Of a stretch of 64,000 nucleotides of DNA, positions 3,799 to 63,800 are shown one piece after another. The DNA comes from an uncultured Flavobacteriaceae bacterium (GTDB lineage Bacteria > Bacteroidota > Bacteroidia > Flavobacteriales > Flavobacteriaceae). Position numbers and translations under genes: made by a program. Numbering within the stretch: the stretch's first letter is position 1; each line of letters begins with the position of its first letter. The DNA lies in NCBI GenBank assembly GCA_964389205.1, contig CAYMDH010000003.1, positions 55,702 through 119,701 of the forward strand, read 5' to 3'. The notes under the pieces were generated by a model. That model did not search any database. It was not told where the DNA came from and saw only the letters and a list, made by a program, of their open reading frames with translations.

Positions 3799-4145
3799 AA
3801 CCTAGGGATACAAAAGCCATATCCACCACTACCAGGTATATAGTATGGACCTCCTTCAGAGGCTTTATAAACAGTATTAATGTTTTTCTGTTTTGTAGAA
3901 GTTGATTTCACTTTTATTTTTGGAATATTTGTATTTATTTCTAGACTTTTTAATGCACTTTTTTGTGTATTAGCAGTAGCCATATTGACTGTTTTTTTAT
4001 CGGAAGATAGAATACTGAAATTTGCTTTTTGAGTTGAACTATTTAAAAGCACTTTGCTTGATGCAATATTTTTAGTGCGTTTTATGTCTTGAGCATAAGA
4101 AAATGTAGAAACCCCAAAAAATAATATAAAAATATAAAACCTCAT
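3795..4145 (-). CDS. hypothetical secreted protein
   Basis: Signal-peptide-like N-terminus (MRFYIFILFFGVSTFSYAQ). No recognisable domain. Confidence 0.45.
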   Translation of the reverse strand: MRFYIFILFFGVSTFSYAQDIKRTKNIASSKVLLNSSTQKANFSILSSDKKTVNMATANTQKSALKSLEINTNIPKIKVKSTSTKQKNINTVYKASEGGPYYIPGSGGYGFCIPRF

Positions 4146-22710: not shown

Positions 22711-24915
22711 TTGAAAATTATTCGTTTCATATTCTTCTTCTTTTTGTGCTCATTTCATTTTGGTTTTTCTCAGACTATCGATGACCCAATAATAGATAGT
22801 ATTAATAACTATTTAGATAAGTCAAGGGCATATCAACGCGAATATGATATTAAAAAATCTATTGAATATGCAAATAAGGTTATAGAACTCTCACAAGAAA
22901 TAGATAATGAAAAATATCAATTTGAGGCATATAATAGTGTAGGTATTAGTTATGAGTTAGTCTCAGATTTTAATACTGCTGAAAAAAATTATCAAAAAGC
23001 ATTATCAAAAGCAGAGTTTCTTAAAAATGACACACTGAGTATCCGGATATATAATAACCTTGGAAATGTCTATTCTGATGGACTTAAAGAGAAAGAGAAA
23101 GGCTTGTTTTATTATAATGAATCATTAGCACTAGCCAAAAAAAATAAAGATACAGTAAAGTTTATAGTTCCTATGATTAATATAGCTTGGACCTATATTG
23201 ATGAAAAAGAATTTGAAAAAGCATATCCTTATTTAAATGAAGTAATGGGATATGTGAAAATATATGGTAATGAAAGACTAATGACTAGTTTAAGTTATTT
23301 AGAAGGGCAATATTATGTTTATAAAAAACAATATAAAAAAGCATTGAAGTCTTTTGATAAATCTATTAATAAGTCTTTAAAATTAGAAATGTTAGCCCAA
23401 CTTTATCATGCGTATCTTGAAAAATCTAAATTGCTTGAAATTTTAGGTCAAAATGATAAAGCATACGAAGCTTTTAAGGCATATGAGAAAAATAAAGAAA
23501 AGGTATTTAACAAAACAAAGTTAAGAGAATTAGAAATTGCAAAGGCCAGATTTGAACTTGATGAATTTCAAAGAGATTTAGGAAAAGCTAAAAAAGAAAA
23601 TGCGTTACAGGCATCTGATGCAAGAAAATCAAAAATAATTACGATAGCATCTTTTATATTAGTCTTAATTTTAATTATCCTTCTTATTATTTTATATAAA
23701 AATTATATCACTAAAAACGAGCTTAGTAATATATTAAAGATTCAAAATCAGAACCTTGAAAAGTCTAAAGAAGCTGCAGAAAAACTATCTAAATTAAAAA
23801 CACAATTTATATCTACGGTTAGCCATGAATTAAGAACTCCTTTATATGGAGTTGTTGGTATTACATCTCTTTTGATGGAGGAAGAAGGAGTTTTGTCAAA
23901 AAAGGAAAATGAATATTTGAAATCCCTTAAATTTTCAAGTGATTATCTGCTTAACCTTATTAATGATGTATTACAATTGAGTAAAATAGAATCCAATAAA
24001 TTACAACTTGAAAAAATAGACTTTAATATTCAAACATTATTAAGAAATGTAGTTAACTCTTTTGGTTTTCACTTAGATCAAAAAAAGAACCAGCTTGAGC
24101 TAGAGATTGATGAAAATATTCCATGTTTTTTAGTGGGTGATAAAATTAGATTGCAACAAATACTAATTAATTTGGTAGGCAATGCTATAAAGTTTACTAG
24201 TAAGGGAACTATATGGTTACGTTTAAAAAAAGTAAAAGAAAACGATGATCATATAACTATTAATTTTCAAATAGAAGATAATGGTATTGGTATTCCAGAA
24301 GAGAAACAAGAGGAGATATTTGATAATTTCTTGCAAATAGAAAGAGAAGACGCAGAATTTCAAGGAACTGGCTTAGGATTGTCTATAGTAAAGAAATTGG
24401 TAACCTTATTTGGAGGAGATATTTATTTAGAAAGTGAAATACATAAAGGGTCTAAGTTTTGTTTTACAATAGATTTTATAAAAAGCAACTCAGAAATAGA
24501 AATAGAATCATTTAAAGAACTATCAAAGAATAATCCCACTCATAAAAAGATATTAGTAGTAGATGATAACAAGATAAATCGAGTAGTCACTCAAAATATA
24601 CTAAAGAAAGAAGAATTTGAATCTGTAGCAGTAAACAATGGACTATTAGCTATAGAAAAAATAAAGGAAGATCATTTTGATCTTATACTAATGGATTTAA
24701 ATATGCCAGTTATGAATGGGTTTGAGACTACCCATAAGATAAGAGAGTTTAATAGAACAATCCCTATCATAGCATTAACAGCTGTTGCTATTGATGAAAT
24801 AAAAGATAAAGTTTTTGAAGCAGGATTGAATGATATAATAAATAAGCCTTATGATAACCTTGAATTTTATCAAACTATTCTTCGAAATATTAAAAAAAGT
24901 AAAATTGAAAATTAA
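22711..24915 (+). CDS. hybrid sensor histidine kinase/response regulator with N-terminal TPR sensor region
   Basis: Signal peptide, TPR repeats, coiled coil and one TM helix. HisKA (STVSHELRTPL), HATPase (GTGLGLSIVK), and a REC domain (ILVVDDN...LILMDLNMP). Confidence 0.85.
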   Translation: MKIIRFIFFFFLCSFHFGFSQTIDDPIIDSINNYLDKSRAYQREYDIKKSIEYANKVIELSQEIDNEKYQFEAYNSVGISYELVSDFNTAEKNYQKALSKAEFLKNDTLSIRIYNNLGNVYSDGLKEKEKGLFYYNESLALAKKNKDTVKFIVPMINIAWTYIDEKEFEKAYPYLNEVMGYVKIYGNERLMTSLSYLEGQYYVYKKQYKKALKSFDKSINKSLKLEMLAQLYHAYLEKSKLLEILGQNDKAYEAFKAYEKNKEKVFNKTKLRELEIAKARFELDEFQRDLGKAKKENALQASDARKSKIITIASFILVLILIILLIILYKNYITKNELSNILKIQNQNLEKSKEAAEKLSKLKTQFISTVSHELRTPLYGVVGITSLLMEEEGVLSKKENEYLKSLKFSSDYLLNLINDVLQLSKIESNKLQLEKIDFNIQTLLRNVVNSFGFHLDQKKNQLELEIDENIPCFLVGDKIRLQQILINLVGNAIKFTSKGTIWLRLKKVKENDDHITINFQIEDNGIGIPEEKQEEIFDNFLQIEREDAEFQGTGLGLSIVKKLVTLFGGDIYLESEIHKGSKFCFTIDFIKSNSEIEIESFKELSKNNPTHKKILVVDDNKINRVVTQNILKKEEFESVAVNNGLLAIEKIKEDHFDLILMDLNMPVMNGFETTHKIREFNRTIPIIALTAVAIDEIKDKVFEAGLNDIINKPYDNLEFYQTILRNIKKSKIEN

Positions 24916-25104: not shown

Positions 25105-27369
25105 TTGAAAAAAACGCTCGTTTTAATAAGTATACTTTTTTGCTACACATTAGCAAAAGGTCAAGTAGGGGATGAACGTCTAAAGGACAGTATGCGAAAT
25201 ACGTTTTCTTTAGCAGAAAGTCTTCAAGTTAGGTACAAAATTGTAGCATCTACAGAGAAAGCTTGCGAGGTAATACGCTTTGCAAAGCTAAATGATAATA
25301 CTTATTATCAGGGAGCTGCATATAATCTTATAGGAATAAACTACGAAACAATTCTTGAATTCAAGAAAGCAGAAGTGAATTATCAAGAAGCTTTAAAATA
25401 TGCCTTAGAAAGTACTAATGATGCATTAATAGGTCGTATATATAATAATTTAGGAAATATATATTATATGGCTTATAACAATCTAGATAAGAGTAATGAA
25501 TATTATTTCAAATCTATTGATTTAGCTAAGGCAAATAATGATATTTCTGAAATAATTACTCCAACACTTAATCTTGGTTGGAATTACCTAGACAGGCAAG
25601 ATACAGCGAGAGCATTCCTTTATTTACAACAAGCAAAAAAGCATATAGAAGAACAGGGAGAATTAAATACAAATATTTATATACATTATCTCTTTGGAAT
25701 ATACCATACACAAAACAATGAGTATGGACAAGCTACTGAAAGTTTTAATAAAGCTATAACAATTGGAGAACACTTTGAAAGTTATCTTGAATTGTCAGAT
25801 GTTTATTTAGCACAATCTAAATTATTTGATTTAACTAAAGATCAAATTAAGAAAAGTAATGCATTAGAAAAATATTATGAGTTTCGTTTAAAAGTGTCTG
25901 GTGTTGAAAACCTGAAACAATTAGCAATAATAGAATCAAAAAACCTACAAGATGGTATTGTTCCAAACACAGAAAGTCCATCTGTATTGAATGATGTTGA
26001 TAATTCATCACCTGTAGTAAATAATAATATTGAAACTAAAAGTTTTTTTAGAAAATACCAGAATATCTTGACCTATATATTACTGGGGTTAGTATTTGCA
26101 AGTATTTTAGGAGTAGTAATATACAGAAGTGTTCAATCTAAAAAGAAACTTACAGAAATGCTAGAAACAAGGAATGAACATTTAGAAGAAGCGAAAGAAG
26201 AAGCAGAAAAATTATCTCAATTAAAATCTCAATTTGTTTCAACCGTAAGTCACGAACTCAGAACTCCTTTATATGGAGTTGTTGGTTTAACTTCATTATT
26301 GTTAGAAGAAAACACATTATCCTCTGAAGAAAACCAATATTTGAAGTCACTTAAATTCTCTGGAGACTATTTACTTAATTTAATAAATGATATTCTTAAT
26401 CTGAGTAAAATAGAATCAAATAAAATTGTATTAGAAAGACGTCCATTCAATATCAGAGATTTAGTTGAAGACGTTATAAGTTCTTTTAAATTTCAATTGG
26501 ATCAAAAGAGTAATAAAATTCATTTATACTTAGACAAAAAGATCCCTCCATTTTTAAAAGGTGATGAGGTTCCATTATCTCAGATACTTATTAATTTAAT
26601 AGGGAATGCGATTAAGTTTACATCCTATGGTAATATCTGGATCTTTTTAAAGTTAACCAGCATTAAAGAAGATGTTGTTAGTATTAATTTTATAGTTAAA
26701 GATGATGGTCCAGGAATCCCTAAAAAGAAACATGATGAGATTTTTGAAAACTTTTCTCAATTAGATCGTGATAATAATGAATACCAAGGAACAGGCTTAG
26801 GTTTATCTATAGTAAAGAAATTAGTAGATTTATTAGAAGGGGAAATTAAATTAATTAGTGATGAAGGTGAAGGAGCTACTTTTAGTTTTAACCTTAATTT
26901 TGATATTGTAAAAGAAAGTAATGCTACTATTGAAAAGAAACGTGTAGAAACCACAAATCTATCAGATAGTGTTTTCGGAAAAGGATATAGAGTATTGATA
27001 GTAGAAGATAATAAGATCAATCAAATAGTTACAAAAAATATACTACTTAGAGAAAACTTTGATTGTGAAGTAGTAGATAATGGAATATCTGCAATAGAAT
27101 ATGTTAAGAATGGAAAATTTGATTTAGTCTTGATGGATTTGAACATGCCACTAATGAGTGGGATAGAAGCATCGGCTAAAATAAGAGAATTTGATGATGA
27201 GACTCCAATTGTAGCATTGACAGCTGTAGAGATAGAAGATGTACGAGACGATATAAAAGACGCAGGAATAGATGATATTATCAATAAACCTTTTGATAAA
27301 AACGAGTTTTATAAGGTCATACTAAAAAATATCAATAGCCGTAAAACAAGAGCAACTAGTAATAGCTAG
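25105..27369 (+). CDS. hybrid sensor histidine kinase/response regulator with N-terminal TPR sensor region (paralog of 22711..24915)
   Basis: Same architecture. The H-box region is nearly identical (SQLKSQFVSTVSHELRTPLYGVVGLTSLL versus SKLKTQFISTVSHELRTPLYGVVGITSLL). The start is TTG. Confidence 0.85.
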   Translation: MKKTLVLISILFCYTLAKGQVGDERLKDSMRNTFSLAESLQVRYKIVASTEKACEVIRFAKLNDNTYYQGAAYNLIGINYETILEFKKAEVNYQEALKYALESTNDALIGRIYNNLGNIYYMAYNNLDKSNEYYFKSIDLAKANNDISEIITPTLNLGWNYLDRQDTARAFLYLQQAKKHIEEQGELNTNIYIHYLFGIYHTQNNEYGQATESFNKAITIGEHFESYLELSDVYLAQSKLFDLTKDQIKKSNALEKYYEFRLKVSGVENLKQLAIIESKNLQDGIVPNTESPSVLNDVDNSSPVVNNNIETKSFFRKYQNILTYILLGLVFASILGVVIYRSVQSKKKLTEMLETRNEHLEEAKEEAEKLSQLKSQFVSTVSHELRTPLYGVVGLTSLLLEENTLSSEENQYLKSLKFSGDYLLNLINDILNLSKIESNKIVLERRPFNIRDLVEDVISSFKFQLDQKSNKIHLYLDKKIPPFLKGDEVPLSQILINLIGNAIKFTSYGNIWIFLKLTSIKEDVVSINFIVKDDGPGIPKKKHDEIFENFSQLDRDNNEYQGTGLGLSIVKKLVDLLEGEIKLISDEGEGATFSFNLNFDIVKESNATIEKKRVETTNLSDSVFGKGYRVLIVEDNKINQIVTKNILLRENFDCEVVDNGISAIEYVKNGKFDLVLMDLNMPLMSGIEASAKIREFDDETPIVALTAVEIEDVRDDIKDAGIDDIINKPFDKNEFYKVILKNINSRKTRATSNS

Positions 27370-53125: not shown

Positions 53126-54409
53126 GTGAAAAAAGCACTCATCATAACATATTATTGGCCCCCTGCTGGAGGACCTGGAGTGCAACGATGGCTTAAGTTT
53201 GTAAAATATTTAAAGGAATTTAACGTGACTCCTGTAGTGTATATTCCTGAGAACCCTAATTACCCTTTAATAGATACAAGTTTTTTAAAAGAAATACCAA
53301 GCGATATAAGAATCTTAAAACAGCCCATTTTTGAACCTTATAAATTAGCTTCTGTCTTTTCTAAAAAAAAATCGAAACGATTAAGCTCCGGTATTATTCA
53401 TGAAAAAAACCAAACCTTTTTAGAAAAATTGCTTTTGTGGATACGAGGAAATGTTTTTATTCCAGATGCAAGAAAGTATTGGGTGAAGCCATCGATAGCT
53501 TATTTATCTAAGTATATAAAGCAGGAAAATATTGAAGTAATTATTACTACAGGCCCACCTCATAGTGTACATCTTATAGGAATGAAAATTAAAAACACAT
53601 TAGATGTACGTTGGATAAGTGATTTTAGAGATCCTTGGACTACCATAGGATATCATCAAAAACTAAAATTAGGAAAAAGGGCAAAACAAAAACATTTGAA
53701 ACTTGAAAAACAAGTGCTAAATACGGCAGATACTATTATAGTAACAAGCCCTACTACTAAAAAAGAGTTTGAAATTAAGACGACAAAGCCTATATATGTT
53801 ATTACTAATGGGTATGATCAAATTAAAGATAGCGAAGTTGTTCTTGATAAGAAATTTACAATTTCTCATATAGGCTCTTTATTATCTGGTAGGGATCCAA
53901 AGATATTATGGGAATCTCTATCAGAATTAATCCAAGAAAATAAAGAGTTTAAAAACGATTTTCAATTGCAATTAATTGGTGCCGTTAGTCAAGATGTTTT
54001 GACAACAATTAATAATCATCAATTAAATAAACATTGTAATTTATTAGGGTATTTGCCACATGATGAAGTACTTGCAATTCAACAATCTTCTCAAGTATTG
54101 CTATTAATAGAGATAAATAGTGAAGAAACACGTTGTATAATACCAGGAAAATTATTTGAGTACTTATCTGCTAATCGCCCTGTTTTAGCTTTGGGCCCCA
54201 ATAGATGGGATGTCTTTCATATTTTAAATAAAACAGGCGGAGGTACAGGATATTTGTATTCTGAAAAAATAGCTTTAAAAGAAAAGATAGTATCTTTCTA
54301 CAACAATTTTAAAGCAGGAAAACTAACAGTAACATCTAAAAATTTAGATGCGTATAGTAGAAGATCATTAACAAGAGAACTTTCAGTTCTTATTCATAAT
54401 GACATATAA
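53126..54409 (+). CDS. glycosyltransferase (GT-B fold, GT4-like)
   Basis: N-terminus has ITYYWPPAGGPGVQR. The C-terminal segment is E-x7-E-like (PGKLFEYL). Confidence 0.75.
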   Translation: MKKALIITYYWPPAGGPGVQRWLKFVKYLKEFNVTPVVYIPENPNYPLIDTSFLKEIPSDIRILKQPIFEPYKLASVFSKKKSKRLSSGIIHEKNQTFLEKLLLWIRGNVFIPDARKYWVKPSIAYLSKYIKQENIEVIITTGPPHSVHLIGMKIKNTLDVRWISDFRDPWTTIGYHQKLKLGKRAKQKHLKLEKQVLNTADTIIVTSPTTKKEFEIKTTKPIYVITNGYDQIKDSEVVLDKKFTISHIGSLLSGRDPKILWESLSELIQENKEFKNDFQLQLIGAVSQDVLTTINNHQLNKHCNLLGYLPHDEVLAIQQSSQVLLLIEINSEETRCIIPGKLFEYLSANRPVLALGPNRWDVFHILNKTGGGTGYLYSEKIALKEKIVSFYNNFKAGKLTVTSKNLDAYSRRSLTRELSVLIHNDI

Positions 54410-55861
54410 ATGGGAATTATAATTAATCAATCACTAAAAAACACCATTACCACTTATTTTGGGTTTGCTTTTGGGGCTATTAATACAATTTTTCTCTATA
54501 CTTTTTTTTTGACAGAAGAATACTATGGGTTGGTTATTTTTATATTATCTGCAGCCAATGTTATTATGCCTTTATTAGCATTTGGAGTTCATAATACTAT
54601 AGTAAAATTTTTTTCTTCATATACAGATGAAAAAGAAAAAGCCAAATTTACAACACTCATGTTTTTGCTTCCTATTGGTATTATTATACCGGTAGGTTTT
54701 ATAGGAATCCTTTTGTATGAACATTTAGTTGTTTTTTTAAGTGAAGAAAATGCTCTTGTTAAAGATTATGTATGGATGATATATGCAGTGGCAATTGCAA
54801 TGGCTTATTTTGAAATTTTCTTTGCATGGGCAAAAGTGCATTTGAAATCAGTTTTTGGAAACTTTTTAAAAGAAGTTTTTCATAGAATTGCTACTATGAT
54901 ATTATTACTTGCATTGTATTTAGATTTTTTGAGTATTGAGAATTTTATTTTAGCACTGGTTATTATGTATTTTTTACGCACTTTATTAATTGGAATAAGT
55001 GCAATAAATAATAAAAAACCAACCTTTAGATTTGCGTTGCCTTTTAATGTAAAAGATGTATTGAAATACTCTTCATTAATTATTTTAGCAGGCTCTGTAG
55101 CTAACCTACTTTTAGAGATAGATAAGGTAATGATAAACCAATACATTGCTATTGAAAATATTGCCTTTTACAGCGTTGGTGTTTTTATAGCAATGGTTAT
55201 TACAGTGCCGTCTAGAGCCATGCATCAAATAGCGCATCCCATTACTGCTAGTTTAATGAATAAAAAGGACACAAAAGCATTAAATAGTCTCTATAAGCGT
55301 AGTTCTTTGACACTTTTTATAATAGGAGGAGGGATTTTTTTATTAATTGTATTGAATATAAATGAATTGTATAGATTACTCCCAGAAAAATATACTCCTG
55401 AAATTATAGTTGTATTTGCTATTTCTTTGGCTAAGCTATCAGATACTCTTTTAGGGAATAATAATTCTATTATCTTCAATTCAGATTATTATAGGATGAT
55501 TTTGCTTTTTGGCGTTTTGCTTATCATCATTACAGTTGTTTTAAATATATTATTTATACCAATGTGGGGAATCGATGGAGCAGCTATAGCTAGTATGATT
55601 TCTTTTTTTATTTATAATACTATAAAGATTTGGTTTGTGAAGTTTAAATTTAAAATTCATCCATTTAGTGTAAAAACAATATATGTGAGTATTGTGTTAA
55701 GTGTTTTTTTGATAGCATTTTATTTTTGGAACTTTCCTTTTCACCCAATGCTCAATATTGTTTTAAAATCTGCTATAATAGGAATTTTGTATTTAACAAC
55801 AATACATAAACTATCATTGTCTGATGATGTGTCTAATTTACTAAAACGCTTTTTACCATAA
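54410..55861 (+). CDS. polysaccharide/oligosaccharide flippase (MOP/Wzx-like)
   Basis: 483 aa with about 12-14 TM helices. Its start abuts the GT stop (TAAATG). Confidence 0.75.
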   Translation: MGIIINQSLKNTITTYFGFAFGAINTIFLYTFFLTEEYYGLVIFILSAANVIMPLLAFGVHNTIVKFFSSYTDEKEKAKFTTLMFLLPIGIIIPVGFIGILLYEHLVVFLSEENALVKDYVWMIYAVAIAMAYFEIFFAWAKVHLKSVFGNFLKEVFHRIATMILLLALYLDFLSIENFILALVIMYFLRTLLIGISAINNKKPTFRFALPFNVKDVLKYSSLIILAGSVANLLLEIDKVMINQYIAIENIAFYSVGVFIAMVITVPSRAMHQIAHPITASLMNKKDTKALNSLYKRSSLTLFIIGGGIFLLIVLNINELYRLLPEKYTPEIIVVFAISLAKLSDTLLGNNNSIIFNSDYYRMILLFGVLLIIITVVLNILFIPMWGIDGAAIASMISFFIYNTIKIWFVKFKFKIHPFSVKTIYVSIVLSVFLIAFYFWNFPFHPMLNIVLKSAIIGILYLTTIHKLSLSDDVSNLLKRFLP

Positions 55862-55867
55862 AAAGAA

Positions 55868-55899
55868 ACCCGCGAACTGTAGTATACAAGTTCACGGGT
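55868..55899. terminator. hairpin between convergent genes
   Basis: ACCCGCGAACT / AGTTCACGGGT, 10 of 11 bp paired, 10-nt loop, no clear T-run. Confidence 0.45.
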
Positions 55900-55924
55900 A
55901 ATCCATAACTAACCAACCAAAATC

Positions 55925-57172
55925 TTAATTTCTTCCTCTCCCTCTAGCTCCATTGTTTCTACTTCTAGGGCTACTTTTACTTGAAGTATTACTTCTACTT
56001 CTTGAAGTTGTTTGTCTTTTATTAGAAGAATTATTACTTCTTCTAGATGTCACTTGTTTTCTATTATTAGACGACGATCTATTTGCTTGAGAATTACTTC
56101 TTCTGCTATTGTTACTATTTGTTCTTCTGGCTTGTGAAGAACGTGTAGTAGATCGTTGTTGTGTTCTTGTTCCATTATTAGAAGAACGTTGCCTTGTCGT
56201 ACTTGTACTTCTACGTTGTGCGTTACCATTTGAAGTGTTTCTTCTTGTGGTAGTACTTCTTCTTTGAGTATTTGTACCAGAAGTATTTCTTCTCGTAGTA
56301 GTAGAAGTTCCTCTACGTGTATTATTTGTTGTACCTCTTCTAGTGGTTGCTTGACTTCTCCCTGAATTTCCTCTTGTACCAACATTACTTCTTCTATCAT
56401 CAACTCTTCTGTTAGAAGCCAAGCTACCTCTATTACTAGATCCTCTTCTTGAATTCGAATATGTATAATTTCTTCTGCTTACTCTACTATCGTTTCTATA
56501 TATTGATCTTCTTTTATTATTATAATGATTATAACGATAATCTCTTCCTACACTTACATAACGTGTTCTTCTATTGTGATGATATGGTCTGTAATAAGAA
56601 TATCTAACAGGTGTATAATATCTTCTATATGGACGGTAATTTATAATACAATAGTTTCTATATGGTTTTGCAAAATATCTATGATACGGCCTATATACAT
56701 ATGATCTATTGTAGTAGTTAATATATCCAGAATAGTGACTGTATACTCCATAGTTATTATAATGAACATACAAACCTCCCAATTGAATTAACCTTCCATT
56801 TCTATAGTTTATATTAAGATCACCAATTCTATTAACCCTGCCATAGTAATCATAGAATACAGGAACGTTTTCTATCTGAATAACTGCTCCATAGTCATCA
56901 TACTGTACATAAGCATTATAGTCATACCCCGAATTAAAACTGATATTGACATTACCAAGGTTAACATTGGCTCCTATAAAAGAATTATTATCTGTATAAA
57001 AATCGAACTGACCATCTGGATATACAGAAAATGTAATACCTCCTTCAGTAAAGATGAAAGATTTCCCATAACCTGCAGTATAATTCCCTGCAAGAGTTGC
57101 TATTTTATTAGTAGCACTCATTGTAAATGTGCTTAAAATAGCTATTGTGAATAGTAGTATTAATTTTTTCAT
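55925..57172 (-). CDS. secreted protein with a Tyr/Arg-rich middle and an Arg/Ser/Thr/Asn-rich disordered tail
   Basis: Signal peptide (MKKLILLFTIAILSTFTMSA) and a beta-rich N-domain. This is followed by YRPYHRYF-type segments and about 156 C-terminal residues with no Asp or Glu. Confidence 0.6.
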   Translation of the reverse strand: MKKLILLFTIAILSTFTMSATNKIATLAGNYTAGYGKSFIFTEGGITFSVYPDGQFDFYTDNNSFIGANVNLGNVNISFNSGYDYNAYVQYDDYGAVIQIENVPVFYDYYGRVNRIGDLNINYRNGRLIQLGGLYVHYNNYGVYSHYSGYINYYNRSYVYRPYHRYFAKPYRNYCIINYRPYRRYYTPVRYSYYRPYHHNRRTRYVSVGRDYRYNHYNNKRRSIYRNDSRVSRRNYTYSNSRRGSSNRGSLASNRRVDDRRSNVGTRGNSGRSQATTRRGTTNNTRRGTSTTTRRNTSGTNTQRRSTTTRRNTSNGNAQRRSTSTTRQRSSNNGTRTQQRSTTRSSQARRTNSNNSRRSNSQANRSSSNNRKQVTSRRSNNSSNKRQTTSRSRSNTSSKSSPRSRNNGARGRGRN

Positions 57173-57387
57173 AATCTATGGTTTTAGATGTTAAACAATC
57201 GGTTCGGTTTATACAAATCAAACAGCGTGCCAAAAATATAAATCGCTGGTTATCAGTAGTGCCTCGTATGCTTGTTTTGCTTTTATCTAAAATTGATTGA
57301 AAAGCTCTAATGATTTCCAGTAAAACTTAAAATAGGTCGTTACCTAAAAGTGTGAACTATAGTGCCCTTTATTTGCTGAGGGCAGAA

Positions 57388-57412
57388 TAAAAAACACAAT
57401 GACTTGTGTTTT
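57388..57412 (-). terminator. rho-independent terminator (bidirectional form)
   Basis: AAAACACAA-tgac-TTGTGTTTT with an A-run and a T-run. Confidence 0.65.
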
Positions 57413-57419
57413 GAATAAT

Positions 57420-57433
57420 ACTTCTATTCATTT
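57420..57433. repeat. left copy of the 14-bp direct repeat ACTTCTATTCATTT
   Basis: Identical to 59814-59827. Confidence 0.9.
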
Positions 57434-57829
57434 TTTTCTTGACAAAAAAACGAAATCGAGCTTGTGACCATAATCCTTACGAACTCTATGGAGTTGATAG
57501 TTAGGACTATCCTTCATTTGTTGGATGATGCTATCAGGGACATCTTCCAAACTTCCAAGTTGATTATGAAGCGTAACATCATTACGATGTACACTATTAA
57601 GGTAATCTCCAAAATCTTCTGCTCTGAAGAAAAAACCAACGGAACGTTCTATATCCCATTCCAGTTCTAAATATGGAATTAATCGTTTTGCAGTATCAAA
57701 AGATTTTTTACCATAACCATTACCGTCCATGTGTGGGAGTTGCAAGCGACAAGCAATAGAATCTAATAAGGTAGATTTACCCGAACCATTTTCTCTTATA
57801 ATGAATGTAATCTTATTGGATAGAAAATT
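57428..57829 (-). pseudogene. remnant of a P-loop (AAA_21/ABC-like) ATPase gene
   Basis: The frame is open from 57829 with no start codon (NFLSNKITFIIRENGSGKSTLLDSIA...). The Walker A motif has Arg in place of the first Gly. The remnant is only about 134 codons and overlaps the 3' end of the Fic gene. Confidence 0.6.
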
Positions 57830-58400
57830 CTATTAAATCTGTAAAGTCTCCTTTGTCAGCTTTTCGCAGTGCTTGTATATACACATCACGAACATTTCCT
57901 TCATGTACCAAATCTTTATGTCCCCAAGTAAATTTAGGTTTTCCAAAAATATGCTTCATTACGATATCCCCCATTAAACGAGAGTGCCTTCCGTTACCAT
58001 TAGGAAAGATATGAATAGCAACTAATTCGTGTTTAAAACGGATAGCAATTTCTTCTTCTAAAAAAGTGTTATTCTCAATCCAATATTTACAATTTCCAAT
58101 GAGTTGATTTACTTGAAACTTATCAACTCCAATATTCTTATTAGATTTTATGACCGTTCCTGCCCATGACCATACATCGCCAAACATCTTTTTATGGACA
58201 TCAAAAATAAATTTTTCAGTAAGGATATTATCTGCTTTGAACTTTCTTCGTAGCAAATAAAATTCAACCGCTTTTTCAATATTGAGCTGTTCAAACTCAT
58301 CCAATTCCTCACGAGTGGTTATCGTGGAAATGAGCAAACCTTCTTTTTCATCTTCATCAATAGGGGTCTGCCCATTGTAATAGTTTAAATCTAATCCCAT
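57813..58400 (-). CDS. Fic family protein ('mobile mystery protein B' type)
   Basis: Fic motif HIFPNGNGRHSR (HxFxxGNGRxxR). 195 aa, with a 10-nt overlap with the upstream HTH gene. Confidence 0.88.
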   Translation of the reverse strand: MGLDLNYYNGQTPIDEDEKEGLLISTITTREELDEFEQLNIEKAVEFYLLRRKFKADNILTEKFIFDVHKKMFGDVWSWAGTVIKSNKNIGVDKFQVNQLIGNCKYWIENNTFLEEEIAIRFKHELVAIHIFPNGNGRHSRLMGDIVMKHIFGKPKFTWGHKDLVHEGNVRDVYIQALRKADKGDFTDLIEFSIQ

Positions 58401-58855
58401 AAGTATCGTGGCATCTCATATACCAATTGCTTGGCTTTATCTTCTACAGCTTTTTGTAATCGTTCATTAGAATTTGCTTGGTCTTCCAATGCCATAGTAT
58501 TAGAAGTGGTTTTTACAATTTCTAATGCCAGTTCTTTTGCTCTGTTTTCAATAGTTTGTTCAATTGAACCATCCATAGGAACAAAGCCATAGACTAACTT
58601 CATATTCAAAGCTCGACTAGCTTCCTCTAAACTTTTCAAGGTAATCGTCCCGTCTTTTTCTCTTTTTTCTATGTTTTCTGCACCTTGACGTGTGATATTC
58701 ATACGCTCTCCAAACTGTCGTAAAGACATCTTGAAAGAGGTGCGTATAGCATTTACCCATCCACTTTCTGGTGATTGATTTTGTAACAGGTGAGCAAATG
58801 CTCTTAACTTAGCATCCATCTGTTCAATCATTAATTTTTGTTTTAAATCTTTCAT
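58391..58855 (-). CDS. XRE-type HTH protein ('mobile mystery protein A' type), putative antitoxin/regulator of the Fic protein
   Basis: HTH segment MSLRQFGERMNITRQGAENIEKRE and C-terminus LKSLEEASRALNMKLVYGFVP. Confidence 0.78.
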   Translation of the reverse strand: MKDLKQKLMIEQMDAKLRAFAHLLQNQSPESGWVNAIRTSFKMSLRQFGERMNITRQGAENIEKREKDGTITLKSLEEASRALNMKLVYGFVPMDGSIEQTIENRAKELALEIVKTTSNTMALEDQANSNERLQKAVEDKAKQLVYEMPRYLWD

Positions 58856-59045
58856 AATAAGTCAATTTATATACTGACAATGACAACACAAATGTAAACA
58901 TATATATTGATATAATAATGTATAAACACAATATATACGTTGACGAAATAATGTCAAGTGGATGTCAAAGCATTTAAAAAAATAGTTTAGCTAGTCAATT
59001 ATTTGTGTTTTCTATTTTGATTAGTTACTTATATGTTAAATGTAG

Positions 59046-59207
59046 AAGATCCCTTGTAATTCCCATAATTGCGCATATAAAACAGCAAAGAAAATACAAA
59101 CACAAGGTGATAGAGTTAAAATAGTTGGAACATCAAGTAATGGTATGAAAATACAAATGTGGGTAAATAAAGCTACAAAAACTATTGAGACCGCTTGGCC
59201 AAAATAA
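59046..59207 (+). pseudogene. start-less 53-codon frame; possible 3' remnant of a polymorphic-toxin nuclease domain
   Basis: The frame is open from the TAG at 59043 to the TAA at 59205 with no usable start. It ends GDRVKIVGTSSNGMKIQMWVNKATKTIETAWPK. To my recollection this resembles the ...TAYP ending of bacterial EndoU-type toxin domains. Confidence 0.3.
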
Positions 59208-59213
59208 TAAAAT

Positions 59214-59642
59214 ATGTGTATAAAAATAGATCATAATTCAATAACAAAAAGGGGCGATACAATTTTTGGAAATATCTATTTTGAAAATAATACTATAATT
59301 TTCCCTGAAAAGGTGTGGAATGATTTCATTGTTATTATATTGAATTGTTGGATGGAGGAATTAGTTAAACTAAAAAAAAATGAAAAAATTTCCGCTGAGT
59401 TATTATTTATGGATGGACCATTATCAATGAAAATCAATTACTCTGATAATGACACTTTTAAATTTTTTTTCGTACATAATGATGAAGTTATAAATTTTAC
59501 TTACCTCCCAATTGAAGACTTCATAAAGTTTTTTTTAATAGAGGTCAATTCCTTAATTCTTTTCTTTTTAAGAAGGCAAAGGAATAATGATGAAATAGAG
59601 AAGCTCAGAAATAATTACACAAAATTAAATAAGATAGGGTAG
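59214..59642 (+). CDS. hypothetical protein; candidate immunity protein by position
   Basis: 142 aa with an ATG 6 nt after the stop of the toxin-like tail. No signal peptide and no recognised domain. Confidence 0.35.
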   Translation: MCIKIDHNSITKRGDTIFGNIYFENNTIIFPEKVWNDFIVIILNCWMEELVKLKKNEKISAELLFMDGPLSMKINYSDNDTFKFFFVHNDEVINFTYLPIEDFIKFFLIEVNSLILFFLRRQRNNDEIEKLRNNYTKLNKIG

Positions 59643-59708
59643 TGTAATAAACTGGCGCTTTTGCAGTTTTTGACATTTTTATCATTGAATATCAGTAAAT
59701 TAAATATG

Positions 59709-59736
59709 GAATAGGCTTCATTTTTGAAACCTATTC
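59709..59736 (+). terminator. hairpin downstream of 59214..59642
   Basis: GAATAGGCTTC / GAAACCTATTC, 10 of 11 bp paired, 6-nt loop, followed by a T-rich tract. Confidence 0.45.
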
Positions 59737-59813
59737 TTGTTCTTAGATGTATTAAAAAGTTTGTTAGAACGCATAGAATGATGGTTTCTATTTCTTTAGT
59801 GTAGTAAATAGAC

Positions 59814-59827
59814 ACTTCTATTCATTT
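59814..59827. repeat. right copy of the 14-bp direct repeat ACTTCTATTCATTT
   Basis: Identical to 57420-57433. Confidence 0.9.
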
Positions 59828-59889
59828 CCTCATTATAGATAATTAATAGTTTATTTTCTTGTTATCTTTTTAAGAATAAAAGAAACGTT

Positions 59890-60657
59890 TTACAAATTAA
59901 TTATCCTTCTAACCCCAATAAAAATTAAAATAAAAGAAGAATATCCTATAAAAAAAGGTACAACATAATGTTCTAAATGAAAAGCAAATAAAATTGCAAT
60001 TATTAATAATTGAAAACCAAGTCCAAAAGTAGAAACAGCAGTCATAAACCAATTAGGAAATTTTTTTCCTTTAACAGCACTTTTGTCTAGATAACAAATA
60101 ATTTTATCAAAAGCTCCGTATAAAATATAGTATAATTTAAATAAAATAGTAACGTATTTCTGTTTTTCCCCCTTCATGGCTATAGGAACTTTATCTTCAA
60201 AAACTCTACTGGTAGTATCGCCATTGTATTTATTTCTTAAAATCACATAATAATAGTTATAGAGCGTACCTTGAAGCTGAATTCCAAAAAAAGCAATAAA
60301 CATGTATAGTATAGAAACTTCTGTAATATGCCATATGGTAAGAAGAATTAAAAAATTTAAAATAATATCTGATACAGAATCTAAGTAACGACCTGTATAA
60401 GAAGGTGTGTTTTTAATTCGTGCTAACTCACCATCAGCAGCATCTAAAATAGATTTGAGAATTAAAAAAAAAGCAGAAGCCCAATATAACTCATTAAGAA
60501 TACAAATAATAGAGATAATGCCAGAAATTATAAAACTTATAGTGATATGTATAGGCGTAGTTGTTGTATTTTTAAGTGATTTGGCTATTAAACGAGCAAT
60601 TGGTCTTCCATAATCGGATAAATCTATAAATTGATTATTCTTAGGTAATTTAGACAT
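59890..60657 (-). CDS. CDP-alcohol phosphatidyltransferase family protein
   Basis: Signature DGx2ARx8Gx3Dx3D is present as DAADGELARIKNTPSYTGRYLDSVSDIILN. Polytopic membrane protein. Confidence 0.85.
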   Translation of the reverse strand: MSKLPKNNQFIDLSDYGRPIARLIAKSLKNTTTTPIHITISFIISGIISIICILNELYWASAFFLILKSILDAADGELARIKNTPSYTGRYLDSVSDIILNFLILLTIWHITEVSILYMFIAFFGIQLQGTLYNYYYVILRNKYNGDTTSRVFEDKVPIAMKGEKQKYVTILFKLYYILYGAFDKIICYLDKSAVKGKKFPNWFMTAVSTFGLGFQLLIIAILFAFHLEHYVVPFFIGYSSFILIFIGVRRIINL

Positions 60658-60895
60658 CCAATTTTATCACTTAATAAATATAAAAAACATTTTTAGTTGA
60701 TATACCAAAAGTAACCAAACTTACTAGCCCCGGCAATTAATAATTTATTAAAATAAAAATAAGACTTAATTAACGTAGAGTTATTTTTAATAGGTGGTTA
60801 TTATTTTTTTACATTTTATCGATTAATATTTATCTTTTGTAGTTAAATAGTCTCTAAAATGTAGTCTAAAGTTGTTGTTTTTATATATTAGTAAT

Positions 60896-63800
60896 ATGAA
60901 AAATATTTTATCAGTACTTATACTATTTAATCTTACATTTATTATAGCTCAAAGTAAAATTGAAAATAATGATTATGATTATATAGTTGAAAATATAAGA
61001 CAATTTGCTAATAATGATGATTATGATAGTATCATAAAAGAAATAGATAAATTGAGTGAAAATGACTCAGCTTATTATGATCTTTTAATTACTAAGTCAT
61101 ATTATTTGATGCAACAAAAAAAATATGAAGAAGCTATTAAAATTACAAACAAAGGGCTTAAAGAAGCTCGATATACACCAAAATATTCTTTTTACATTAA
61201 TAAAGGAGTTTCTTTAAGAAGCCTTAAGAAGTATGACGATGCATTAAAATTGTATAATGAAGCATTAAAAATATACCCTAAAAATCATATTTTTAATTAT
61301 AATAAAGGATTGATTTTTGAAGCACAAGGAGCTTATAATAAAGCTATTGAATCGTATCAAAAGACGATAGCACTGAATCCATTTTATGCTAATAGTCATT
61401 TAAAACTAGGAAATCTTTTCTATAGAAAACGACTTATATCACAGGCACTCATGTGTTTTAATGTTTACTTGATATTAAACCCAGAGGGAGAGGCTGCATT
61501 TAATGTGTTAAACTCATTAAATAAAGCAGTATCTGCCAGTAATCAAAGTGATGAAATAAAAGGCGGTTTAATATCTTCTGAAGACAATGAAAGCTTTGAA
61601 GATTTAGACTTGTTAATAGATAATAGAATTGCTTTGAATGAAGAGTATAAAACCTCAAATGAAATTAATATTGCCTTTACAAAGCAAAATCATTTGTTGT
61701 TAAATCAACTTGTCGAGATATCAGGAAATGGTGGCTTTTGGGCTAAACGATACTTGCCTTTATATAAGTGGATTATGACTAATGATCTATTTGATGCGTT
61801 CATTTATACTACAACATATTCTATTAAGAATGAGAAGTATAAAAAAATAGTTGAAAAAAAAGTACCAGAGATTAAGTCATTTATATCTTCATTTAAAGAA
61901 GTTTTAGGAAAAACAATGAGTGAATGGGAATATGCCGTAGATGGTGTAAAAAAAACACTTACACATTATTTCGATGAAGAAAAGTTTTATGGAATAGGAA
62001 TAATGAAATCAGAAAATTTCATTGGAAAATGGGAGTTTTATAATAAACATGGACGATTAATTACAACGGGGAATTTTGATGAAAATGGAGAGAGAAAAGG
62101 AAATTGGGTTTGGTTAGATAGTTTCGGTAAAAAAGAAGAAGAAGGAACATACTTGGCAGGAAAAGTAACAGATATTTACAAAGAATACTTTTCTAATGGA
62201 AAGTTACAATATTCAACTACTTATTCAAATGGAATTGTAAATGGAGAGTTTAAAGCTTATAACATTAAAGGTGCACTTATTGAAAAAAAGAATTTTAAAG
62301 AAGGAAAATTGGATGGAGCATATCAATCGTTTTATGAAGTTGGAGAGTCCAGTCCTAGCTCTAAAGTTATTTATGAAAATGGAGAAGCTGTAGGTAAAGC
62401 TCAACAATTTTACCCTAATGGAACTTTAAAGTTTGAAGTAAACTTTGTAAATGGATTAAGAGAAGGTATAGAAAAAAACTATTTTGATGATGGAAAATTA
62501 TTAAATGAAATCCCATACATAAATGGAGACTATAATGGGCTTTATAAACAGTACCATCACAATGGAGTAATTGAAGAAGAAGGGCAAGCTAAAGATGGGG
62601 CTAATGTTGGAGAATGGAAAGAGTATTATACAAATGGTATTTTATCAAGAAAATATAATTATAATAAAGGGATGCTTAATGGGCTATATCATGATAATAA
62701 TTATCAGGGAAAACCGTATTCTGATTTTGTTTATAGAAATGGAGAAATTATAGAATACACGTATTTTGATAAAGAAGGAAGTATTATTAAGACAGCTAGA
62801 AAAAAAGGAGGAGAATTTCTCTACGAAGGTTATTCTATAGACGGAAATAAGATATCAGAAGGCTTATATAATATTAAAGGAGGAAAAAAAGGTGCTTGGA
62901 AATTTTACACTAATAATGGAGTCCTAAGTGGTGAAGGTAATTATGAAGATGATAAAATATTAGGGGTTTATACTAATTATCATACAAATGGAAAAATTAG
63001 TAATAGGGTAGGTTACAAGAATGATTCTGTAACTGGATATTATGAAAACTATTATAAATGGGGGCAGTTAGAACAGCAAGGTTGGTATAGAGATAATGCA
63101 TCTTCAGGAATATGGAAATCATATTATCCAGATGGTACTTTAAAAGAGGAAGATTATTATCATAAAGGAAAATTACATGGAAATCAAAAATCATTTACCG
63201 CAAAAGGCAAACTTTACTTGGTTTCTCTATATCAATATGGTGAGTTAATAAGAGAAAGTTATTATGATGATAAAGGAGTATTTCTTGAAGAGATAAGTTT
63301 TTTAGACCAAGGCATTACTGCCAGAACAACTCTAAAACATTCTAATGGAAAACCATATATTAATGTTGATTATAAAAATGGAGTTAAACAGGGGAAATAT
63401 GAAGAATTTGATTTTTATGGAACTAAAATAATAGATGGACATTATTTAAATGGGAAACCTCATGGTGATTGGAAGTGGTATTATCCAAATGGAGCCTTAC
63501 GCATTACTGGGTCTGTAATAAACGATAAGTATCATGGAGAATGGACTAAATATTATAAAGATGGACAACTCCAAGATAAATATTCCTATGTTTTAGGAGC
63601 TCTAAATGGGGTATGGGAATCTTATTATAAAGATGGTACTATAGAAGACACCATAGAATACACAAATAACCTTATCCATGGAAAGCGAGCATTTTATAGC
63701 CCTGAAGGAAAACTTCAAATTATTAGATATTATGAATATGGACGTTTAATAGGGTATAGCTATAATACTAAAGAAGGAAAAATACTTCCAATGATTCCTG

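Follow-up and report, generated by a model that had tools for sequence, protein, structure and literature searches.

Among the modular intergenic repeats of bacteria are the REP sequences and BIMEs of enterobacteria, the BOX elements (boxA, boxB and boxC) and RUP of Streptococcus pneumoniae, the Correia elements, and other miniature inverted-repeat transposable elements (MITEs). Arrays of immunity genes associated with a recombinase (rAID) have reportedly been found in Bacteroidota by Ross et al. in 2019, and the mobile mystery A/B pair (TIGR02612/TIGR02613) is regarded, following its NCBIfam description, as an HTH protein plus a Fic protein resembling an addiction module. The locus compared here with these systems is a 2.4-kb islet at positions 57420-59827 of a stretch of 64,000 nucleotides (the window) from an uncultured Flavobacteriaceae bacterium. 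The islet is bracketed by two perfect copies of a 14-mer, ACTTCTATTCATTT, which a preliminary description had read as att-like or target-duplication ends of an inserted and since degraded element, or as a recombination scar. We consider it probable that both 14-mers derive from a dispersed repeat called module C, of which they are 5' ends, that they neither arose through insertion of the intervening DNA nor mark its limits, and that the locus is an ordinary repeat-rich variable region.

The window (~30% GC) corresponds to positions 55702-119701 of contig C3 of genome G000 (157 contigs, 3.79 Mb, 31% GC). Comparisons were made with two other species of the genus (G001 and G002, the congeners), with two other genera of the family (G004 and G021), and with a genome from another genus (G248).

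Dispersed repeats at the two 14-mers

An exact-match search located the 14-mer at 57420-57433 and 59814-59827, as had been reported, and these remained the only two copies in the window with one mismatch allowed. Both had been placed in spacers, which has to be corrected for the left copy: it overlaps the open reading frame (ORF) of an ATPase fragment, whose stop codon (57428-57430) lies inside it. BLAST of 57100-60000 against its own genome revealed that both spacers are built of dispersed repeats, and no non-coding dispersed repeats were found in the window other than the stretches 57210-57456 and 59638-59881, which have up to 10-18 further copies. The left spacer carries three modules on the forward strand. 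Module A (57311-57348) has ~8 other copies in the genome. Module B (57378-57419) comprises two hairpins, GCCCT..AGGGC and AACACAA-TGAC-TTGTGTT, the latter followed by a T run; compensatory variants are present in its other copies, and the module has the appearance of a terminator on either strand. Module C (57420-57456) begins with the left 14-mer as its 5' edge and is cut at 57456.

Module C is a multi-copy, non-coding, intergenic repeat with no consistent reading frame across its copies. Its 28-nt core, TTCATTTTTKTCTTGAYAMAAAAACGAA, searched with up to two mismatches, rendered 13 sites in G000, 6 in G001, 4 in G002, 1 in G004 and 2 in G021, against 0 occurrences of the reversed-pattern control, and a looser BLAST search rendered about 20 copies in G000. 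The family is common to three species of the genus and sporadic in two other genera. Sites in G000 include those on C9, C18, C27, C35, C36, C43, C45, C63, C110 and C135 (loci L042-L054), and several of the one-mismatch variants of the 14-mer found elsewhere in the genome head module C copies too. When 28 copies are aligned, their 5' edge is sharp, the upstream sequences being unrelated save for a weak preference for TTCTR; on the 3' side there are at least three conserved types of continuation, and no common 3' end or target duplication was defined. The succession of modules B and C recurs at C9, C35 and C63, and the junction between module B and the left 14-mer is therefore native to the repeat family.

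The hairpin of module C reads TTTTTTT-CTTGAC-AAAAAAA in the window and TTTTTNN-CTTGAY-NNAAAAA in the family, and its 7-bp helix (positions 15-21/28-34) is paired in 28 of 28 copies. The two loop-closing pairs covary (GT/AC, GG/CC, TT/AA and TC/GA; GC/UA and UA/GC/CG), with a covariation score reached by none of 500 shuffles, although the copies are related and hence represent few independent events. The loop CTTGAC could also pair, 13 nt further downstream, with GTCAAG (78% of cells paired), a pairing that would constitute a pseudoknot or an alternative fold. An Rfam search of the islet and five repeat-rich loci returned only tRNA and a sub-threshold plastid 3'UTR match, none of them relevant; a family with a covarying stem and no Rfam match is a minor positive outcome of this analysis.

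This set of repeats can be likened to REP, BOX and MITE elements by layout, no sequence relation being expected. As in those systems, there are tens of intergenic copies, often right after stop codons, that lack coding capacity and are present in congeners, and short modules (A, B, C, the unit R described below, and three continuations after module C) occur in varied combinations, with stem-loops that carry compensatory changes. Of the marks of MITEs, terminal inverted repeats and target duplications could not be defined for module C, of which only the 5' edge is sharp. Unlike in repeats linked to RAYT or IS200/IS605, no such transposase was found among the ORFs examined next to module C copies, which look housekeeping, and no Rfam match was obtained.

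The right spacer contains a different unit, R (59638-59827, forward strand), with homologs at C35:435-623, C35:1820-1990 and C111:~3810-4000 and with 3-4 units in the genome. It opens with a box (GTGTAATAAACTGG; GTGTAGTAAAYTGG) that supplies the stop codon of the upstream ORF, an immunity-type gene here and a ParE-like gene at C35. Inside it, a hairpin with a 12-bp stem (59709-59736) is probably a terminator, and a second box, GTGTAGTAAATAG, precedes the right 14-mer. At C62 and in both C35 copies, this second box leads into a partial module C with a full one after it (...GGTGCTTCTGTTCATTTTTTCTTGA|TGCTTCTTTTCATTTTTGTCTTGACAC...), the R end at C35 bearing CTTCTGTTCATTTTTTCTTGA before the full module, and in the C111 copy the second box is followed by unrelated sequence devoid of the 14-mer motif. 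The right 14-mer is therefore a fragment of module C, and the two 14-mers are related by descent through the 5' end of this module. The stretch to the right of it (59828-59881, forward strand), which begins CCTCATTATAGATAATTAATAG/CCTCATTATAG, is homologous to C35:~811-859 (90% between 59841-59881 and C35:820-859 in BLAST), where the counterpart lies ~190 bp past the R end, beyond the full module C. Both flanks of the right 14-mer (59638-59827 and 59841-59881) are thus found in the same order at an unrelated locus.

The box GTGTAGTAAAYTGG was also considered as a frequent cassette signal, but only 5 convincing copies were found. The C35 locus (L030, C35:1-2900) is a contig-end "junkyard" with a gene that we read as ParE/RelE-like, an RHS-core fragment (...YIYQYKDHLGNVRLSYS), an N-terminal fragment of an IS21-like transposase, and two tandem 47-aa peptides with leaders M(K/E)NLKKLSLVKK.ISKL, among which R, C, A and B units are interleaved.

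The bearing of chance on the 14-mer pair depends on how the pair is framed. For the spacers 57173-57433 and 59643-59889, 3000 dinucleotide shuffles gave P = 0.0013 for a shared word of at least 14 nt, and the earlier estimate of a chance well under 1 percent holds for that pair of spacers. It does not hold for a pair chosen post hoc: 17 exact direct repeats of at least 14 bp with a spacing of 100-5000 bp were counted across the 64-kb window, against 7-9 expected from Markov simulations of order 1-3, so that a bare 14-mer pair picked from the window is unremarkable by itself. Three of the 17 derive from one paralogous gene pair at 23.8-26.8 kb, whose segments (23767-24870 and 26194-27312) have common words of up to 27 nt at a spacing of ~2.43 kb. 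A second exact 14-mer pair at this locus, ACCTCCCAATTGAA, at 56774-56787 in a secreted-protein gene and at 59503-59516 in the immunity-type gene, has no repeat family behind it and was treated as chance. A word of caution follows for genomes of this composition: at 30% GC, several perfect 14-mer pairs with a spacing of a few kb are to be expected in 64 kb, and a pair that is not due to chance may simply report a dispersed repeat family.

Pure coincidence of two unrelated AT-rich spacers would be in line with these window-wide counts and with the fact that, within the window, the sequences around the two copies have nothing in common past the 14 nt. Against it, the genome contains four exact copies (the two of the window, C27:97 and C69:421) where 0.25-0.46 were expected, an excess due to membership in the repeat family, and the congeners contain none. 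Moreover, C35, where the R end with CTTCTGTTCATTTTTTCTTGA runs into a full module C, bridges the contexts of the left and right copies, and C62 does likewise. The match is not a compositional coincidence, and that unrelated spacers should have arrived at it by chance appears highly improbable. A high frequency of the 14-mer in the genome, which the preliminary description had named as an argument against its own reading, is found in part: the exact word is limited to four copies, while the strict module C core reaches 13 (and ~20 by the looser search).

Junctions, synteny and competing explanations

The homology of the ATPase fragment stops at 57455 and that of module C at 57456, and the 5' truncation of the ATPase gene adjoins the end of the Fic gene. 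Discontinuities were located at 57456/57457, ~57823-57829, ~59050-59073 and 59827/59828, none being counted at the outer edges of the 14-mers. Homology to other loci crosses each 14-mer, so that neither of them can be a junction. The islet is mosaic, put together from three or more independent pieces. Its GC content is 32-37% over the ATPase, Fic and HTH part and 24-27% over the toxin tail and immunity part; composition was discarded as a marker of the islet, the profile proposed for this purpose in the preliminary description being uneven inside and lacking a step at either 14-mer.

Synteny with the congeners also breaks away from the 14-mer. The order of the glycosyltransferase, flippase and secreted-protein genes, the last of them (55925-57172) encoding a Tyr/Arg-rich protein, is kept in both. 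A flippase query over the genome contigs rendered a single distant match, of no use for synteny. The upstream or promoter region of the secreted-protein gene (57173-57316, reverse strand) contains a box, TGGCACGCTGTTTGAT, at ~57218-57240, that is conserved in both congeners and upstream of a paralog on C53, and that resembles a sigma-54 -24/-12 element; the sequence TTTTTGGCACGCTGTTTGATT, upstream of the same gene, is likewise common to all three genomes and to the C53 paralog. Similarity across species stops near 57243, ~175 bp to the left of the left copy, and similarity to the upstream region of the C53 paralog stops near 57316. Beyond 57243 all three genomes differ from one another: when the two congeners were inspected for an empty site, neither had any 14-mer and each carried different DNA after the secreted-protein gene.

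On the right, the CDP-alcohol phosphatidyltransferase gene (59890-60657, reverse strand) and the gene for a TPR/MORN-repeat protein (60872 onward, forward strand) are strain-specific, and strain-specific DNA continues for ~8 kb past the right copy to an insertion sequence (IS) at the contig end. No orthologs of the ATPase, the Fic protein, the immunity protein, the CDP-alcohol phosphatidyltransferase, the TPR/MORN protein or the DUF3857 protein of the contig end were found in the searched G001 and G002, the ATPase search covering a sample of the family in which, among congeners, G001 alone was listed; the mobile mystery A/B pair is absent from the congeners. The earlier statement that ordinary envelope genes lie outside the copies hence calls for correction on the right side, where the genes are as strain-specific as those of the islet and lack conservation within the genus. 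The 2.4-kb islet makes up the leftmost quarter of ~11 kb of strain-specific DNA.

These results bear directly on the idea that the 14-mers are the att core or the target-site duplication of one 2.4-kb integrative element whose recombinase has since been lost. Such an element would account for a perfect direct repeat in spacers of the same orientation, at a P value of 0.0013 for the spacer pair, and for the accessory content between the copies. It would not account for the independent homologs that both copies have at unrelated loci, with homology crossing them, nor for a junction of modules B and C that is native to the repeat family immediately left of the left copy; the genes of the right flank are not ancestral, and the synteny break lies at ~57243 and not at 57420. 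No integrase or transposase ORF was found in the ORF lists for 54000-62000, and the genes onward to the end of C3 encode only TPR, transglutaminase-core and DUF3857 domains. The absence of such genes had been noted before and stands, the nearest mobile element being the IS end at the contig end. In addition, 14 bp exceeds the 5-bp duplication produced by the IS active in this genome. With the repeats lying off the boundary between inserted and resident DNA, the motif found genome-wide, and no recombinase remnant inside, the finding fails when framed as the ends of a degraded element, and we regard that explanation as extremely improbable.

Recombination between two module C copies deserves more weight. 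An incoming segment with a box followed by module C would have recombined, through homologous or short-homology exchange, with a chromosomal A-B-C arrangement, leaving the 14-mers as remains. When 59797-59827 is joined to 57434-57456, the joint reproduces the arrangement of box and module C seen at C35:595-668 and at C62; within the window, the repeats are confined to the variable region; and the two copies are identical over 14 nt, where most members of the family differ at 1-3 positions. Several of these points weigh against the reading that we prefer. The identity of the two copies hints at a closer kinship, for example by gene conversion or through a subfamily with the copies on C27 and C69, and the C35-like joint that is recreated when the R end is joined to the sequence after the left copy is also what would be expected of a circle that integrated through recombination inside module C. 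On the same side it must be counted that the synteny comparison was made with two other species, none of them conspecific, and that module C may belong either to the MITE/REP-like elements or to the structured RNAs. On the other hand, no more than 14 nt of module C are left in the right copy, which calls for a second event, what lies between the copies is itself composite, with three modules that were truncated separately and differ in GC content, and strain-specific DNA reaches well past both copies. A homology of 14-37 nt of AT-rich sequence is also short for RecA-dependent exchange. On balance we hold recombination of this kind to be unlikely. Of the "recombination scar" proposed earlier, only a loose sense is retained, in that the repeats may be substrates of rearrangement; the notion of the 14-mers as ends of an insertion is not.

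The course of events that best agrees with the preferred explanation, in which the 14-mers are copies of the module C 5' end, would be as follows. The left copy heads a module C in the usual A-B-C arrangement; a deletion or illegitimate recombination would have cut this module after 37 nt, and with it 40% of the ATPase gene would have been lost at the 3' end. The right copy, a 14-nt stub of the motif, would have come down as the last portion of the R unit that trails the immunity gene. Unrelated accessory modules would have accumulated and decayed between them, giving an ATPase relic, an intact Fic pair, and an EndoU tail with an immunity gene that is probably still protective. We infer that the repeats served as passive substrates of rearrangement.

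Genes between the copies

The accessory content listed in the preliminary description (an ATPase remnant, an HTH and Fic pair, a toxin tail and a small ORF) was recovered in full, and ORFs and Pfam/NCBIfam matches in 57420-59827 are limited to the ATPase fragment, the Fic and HTH proteins, the EndoU tail and the immunity gene. The ATPase fragment (57455-57823, reverse strand) corresponds to residues 32-155 (71% identity) of a 262-aa ATPase, intact versions of which are present in other genera, and lacks 31 N-terminal and 107 C-terminal residues. It keeps the Walker A motif, the regions of the signature, Walker B and H-loop being gone, and its Pfam P-loop matches are sub-threshold; from its sequence motifs we assign it to an ABC-type/AAA_21-like ATPase, of which it is a pseudogene remnant. 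The last eight codons and the stop of its ORF (FVFLSRKK*) are module C read on the reverse strand. A similar apparent gene end at C27 ("...FVFSSRKK*") suggested the left 14-mer as the 3' end of a paralogous ATPase gene, a candidate that was rejected: tblastn rendered no paralog, and the ends look shared because both are module C read backwards.

The Fic protein (57813-58400, reverse strand; mobile mystery protein B) matches TIGR02613 with 214.3 bits against a cut-off of 124.4, in addition to a Pfam Fic match, and the HTH_3 protein (58391-58855, reverse strand; mobile mystery protein A) matches TIGR02612 with 142.7 bits against a cut-off of 122.6. Both genes are intact and overlap by 10 nt, with A upstream of B, and a promoter-like sequence, TTGACA-16-TATATT, a good match to the sigma-70 type, is located at 58957-58930. 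The locus is therefore like described mobile mystery A/B pairs in that both models score above their curated cut-offs and the genes overlap, A first, in a variable accessory context. These models are of the "hypoth_equivalog" type, the name turned up in only 4 papers, and the function is a predicted one. The Fic motif of protein B, HIFPNGNGRHSR, has Asn at the position that is Asp/Glu in the canonical motif of AMPylating Fic proteins. The two genes probably form a Fic-type, addiction-like module, and the intact pair is a candidate addiction module.

The toxin tail (59073-59207, forward strand) consists of the last 43 of ~129 residues of an EndoU domain of an RHS-type toxin (59073-59201) plus the stop, corresponding to about positions 85-128 of the 129-position EndoU model as matched in full-length relatives. 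It has no start codon, its catalytic part is absent, and in-frame stops lie upstream. Matches to its frame were found at the very C-terminal ends of 221 representative proteins (56-2046 aa), and the relatives tested carry a C-terminal EndoU_bacteria domain (PF14436) behind RHS repeats, PT-HINT or DUF6443. Six nucleotides past the tail stop begins the immunity-type gene (59214-59642, forward strand; 142 aa). In G248, a 276-aa RHS C-terminal protein that ends in ...AYSNAKKIKTQGNRVKLRGTASDGTSIEIWLNKVTKTIETAYPLK is followed, also after 6 nt, by a 155-aa protein 40% identical to the product of 59214-59642. From this layout and the PF14436 domain of the relatives it follows that the tail and the small ORF are a truncated EndoU toxin with its immunity gene. 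Other assemblies with the Fic and immunity proteins (SRR2835678 and JGI 3300000976) show the identical arrangement only and provide no independent context.

With its 5'-truncated EndoU (PF14436) C-terminal domain and an immunity-type gene 6 nt downstream, this pair is like the orphan toxin-tail/immunity cassettes of rhs, contact-dependent inhibition (CDI) and polymorphic toxin systems. Unlike them, it is not accompanied by a full-length rhs gene in the ORF lists for 54000-62000 or by RHS domains in the genes onward to the contig end, and the 43 toxin codons left include no conserved pre-toxin segment by which it could recombine with a main gene. Toxin tail and ATPase fragment alike are probably dead relics. 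The immunity gene may have kept its protective effect against EndoU-tipped RHS toxins of neighbouring bacteria, and this orphan gene is a candidate for acquired immunity.

The combination of small genes with hairpin repeats raises a further alternative, namely that R and module C are recombination sites of a cassette-shuffling system of the genus that moves small accessory genes, with CTTCTnTTCATTT as the crossover core and 57420-59827 as one circularly permuted block. The recombinase would then be encoded elsewhere, or the mechanism would be a hairpin-directed, single-stranded one, and the cargo would be toxin-immunity, toxin-antitoxin and peptide cassettes. As in integron attC arrays and rAID, homologous hairpin repeats, each starting at a stop codon, come after unrelated small ORFs (the immunity gene here; at C35, the ParE-like gene and short peptides). 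Unlike in those systems, no recombinase ORF was found in the ORF lists of 54000-62000 or in the first 6 kb of C35, R units number only 3-4, and module C is also found between apparent housekeeping genes. We give this alternative very little credence.

The insertion sequence at the end of C3

To the right of the window, two DUF3857 genes are followed by the end of C3 at window coordinate 68261, 54 nt into the terminus of a multi-copy IS (~68207-68261). Contig ends in this IS are of two types, 13 of one and 11 of the other, and both begin GAGACCTTTG, the body of the element being missing from the assembly. The termini read GAGACCTTTGCACTAAAATTT... and GAGACCTTTGAAAAATGTCAT..., and the assembly is broken by the element at ~12 sites. 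Matching of target duplications, of 5-6 nt each, pairs nine or ten ends one-to-one, which provides an order for nine or ten contig pairs of a draft assembly, including the path from C3 through the IS to C53. The end of C3 pairs uniquely with the start of C53 through ATATG, a 5-bp target duplication. The other pairs are C83-C69, C45-C20, C137-C57, C74-C125, C55-C11, C132-C51, C102-C153, and C63-C27 or C63-C17.

The first gene on C53 is the paralog of the secreted-protein gene, and in G001 that paralog is located 1.3 kb from the secreted-protein gene itself. The most economical reconstruction is therefore the secreted-protein gene, ~11 kb of strain-specific DNA (57245-68207), the IS, and the paralog. 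Between the paralog and the next conserved gene, C53 has ~3.3 kb (L038, C53:745-4042) where G001 has a spacer of 122 bp; this DNA is another insertion at the locus that is specific to the strain, with repeat modules at C53:725-800.

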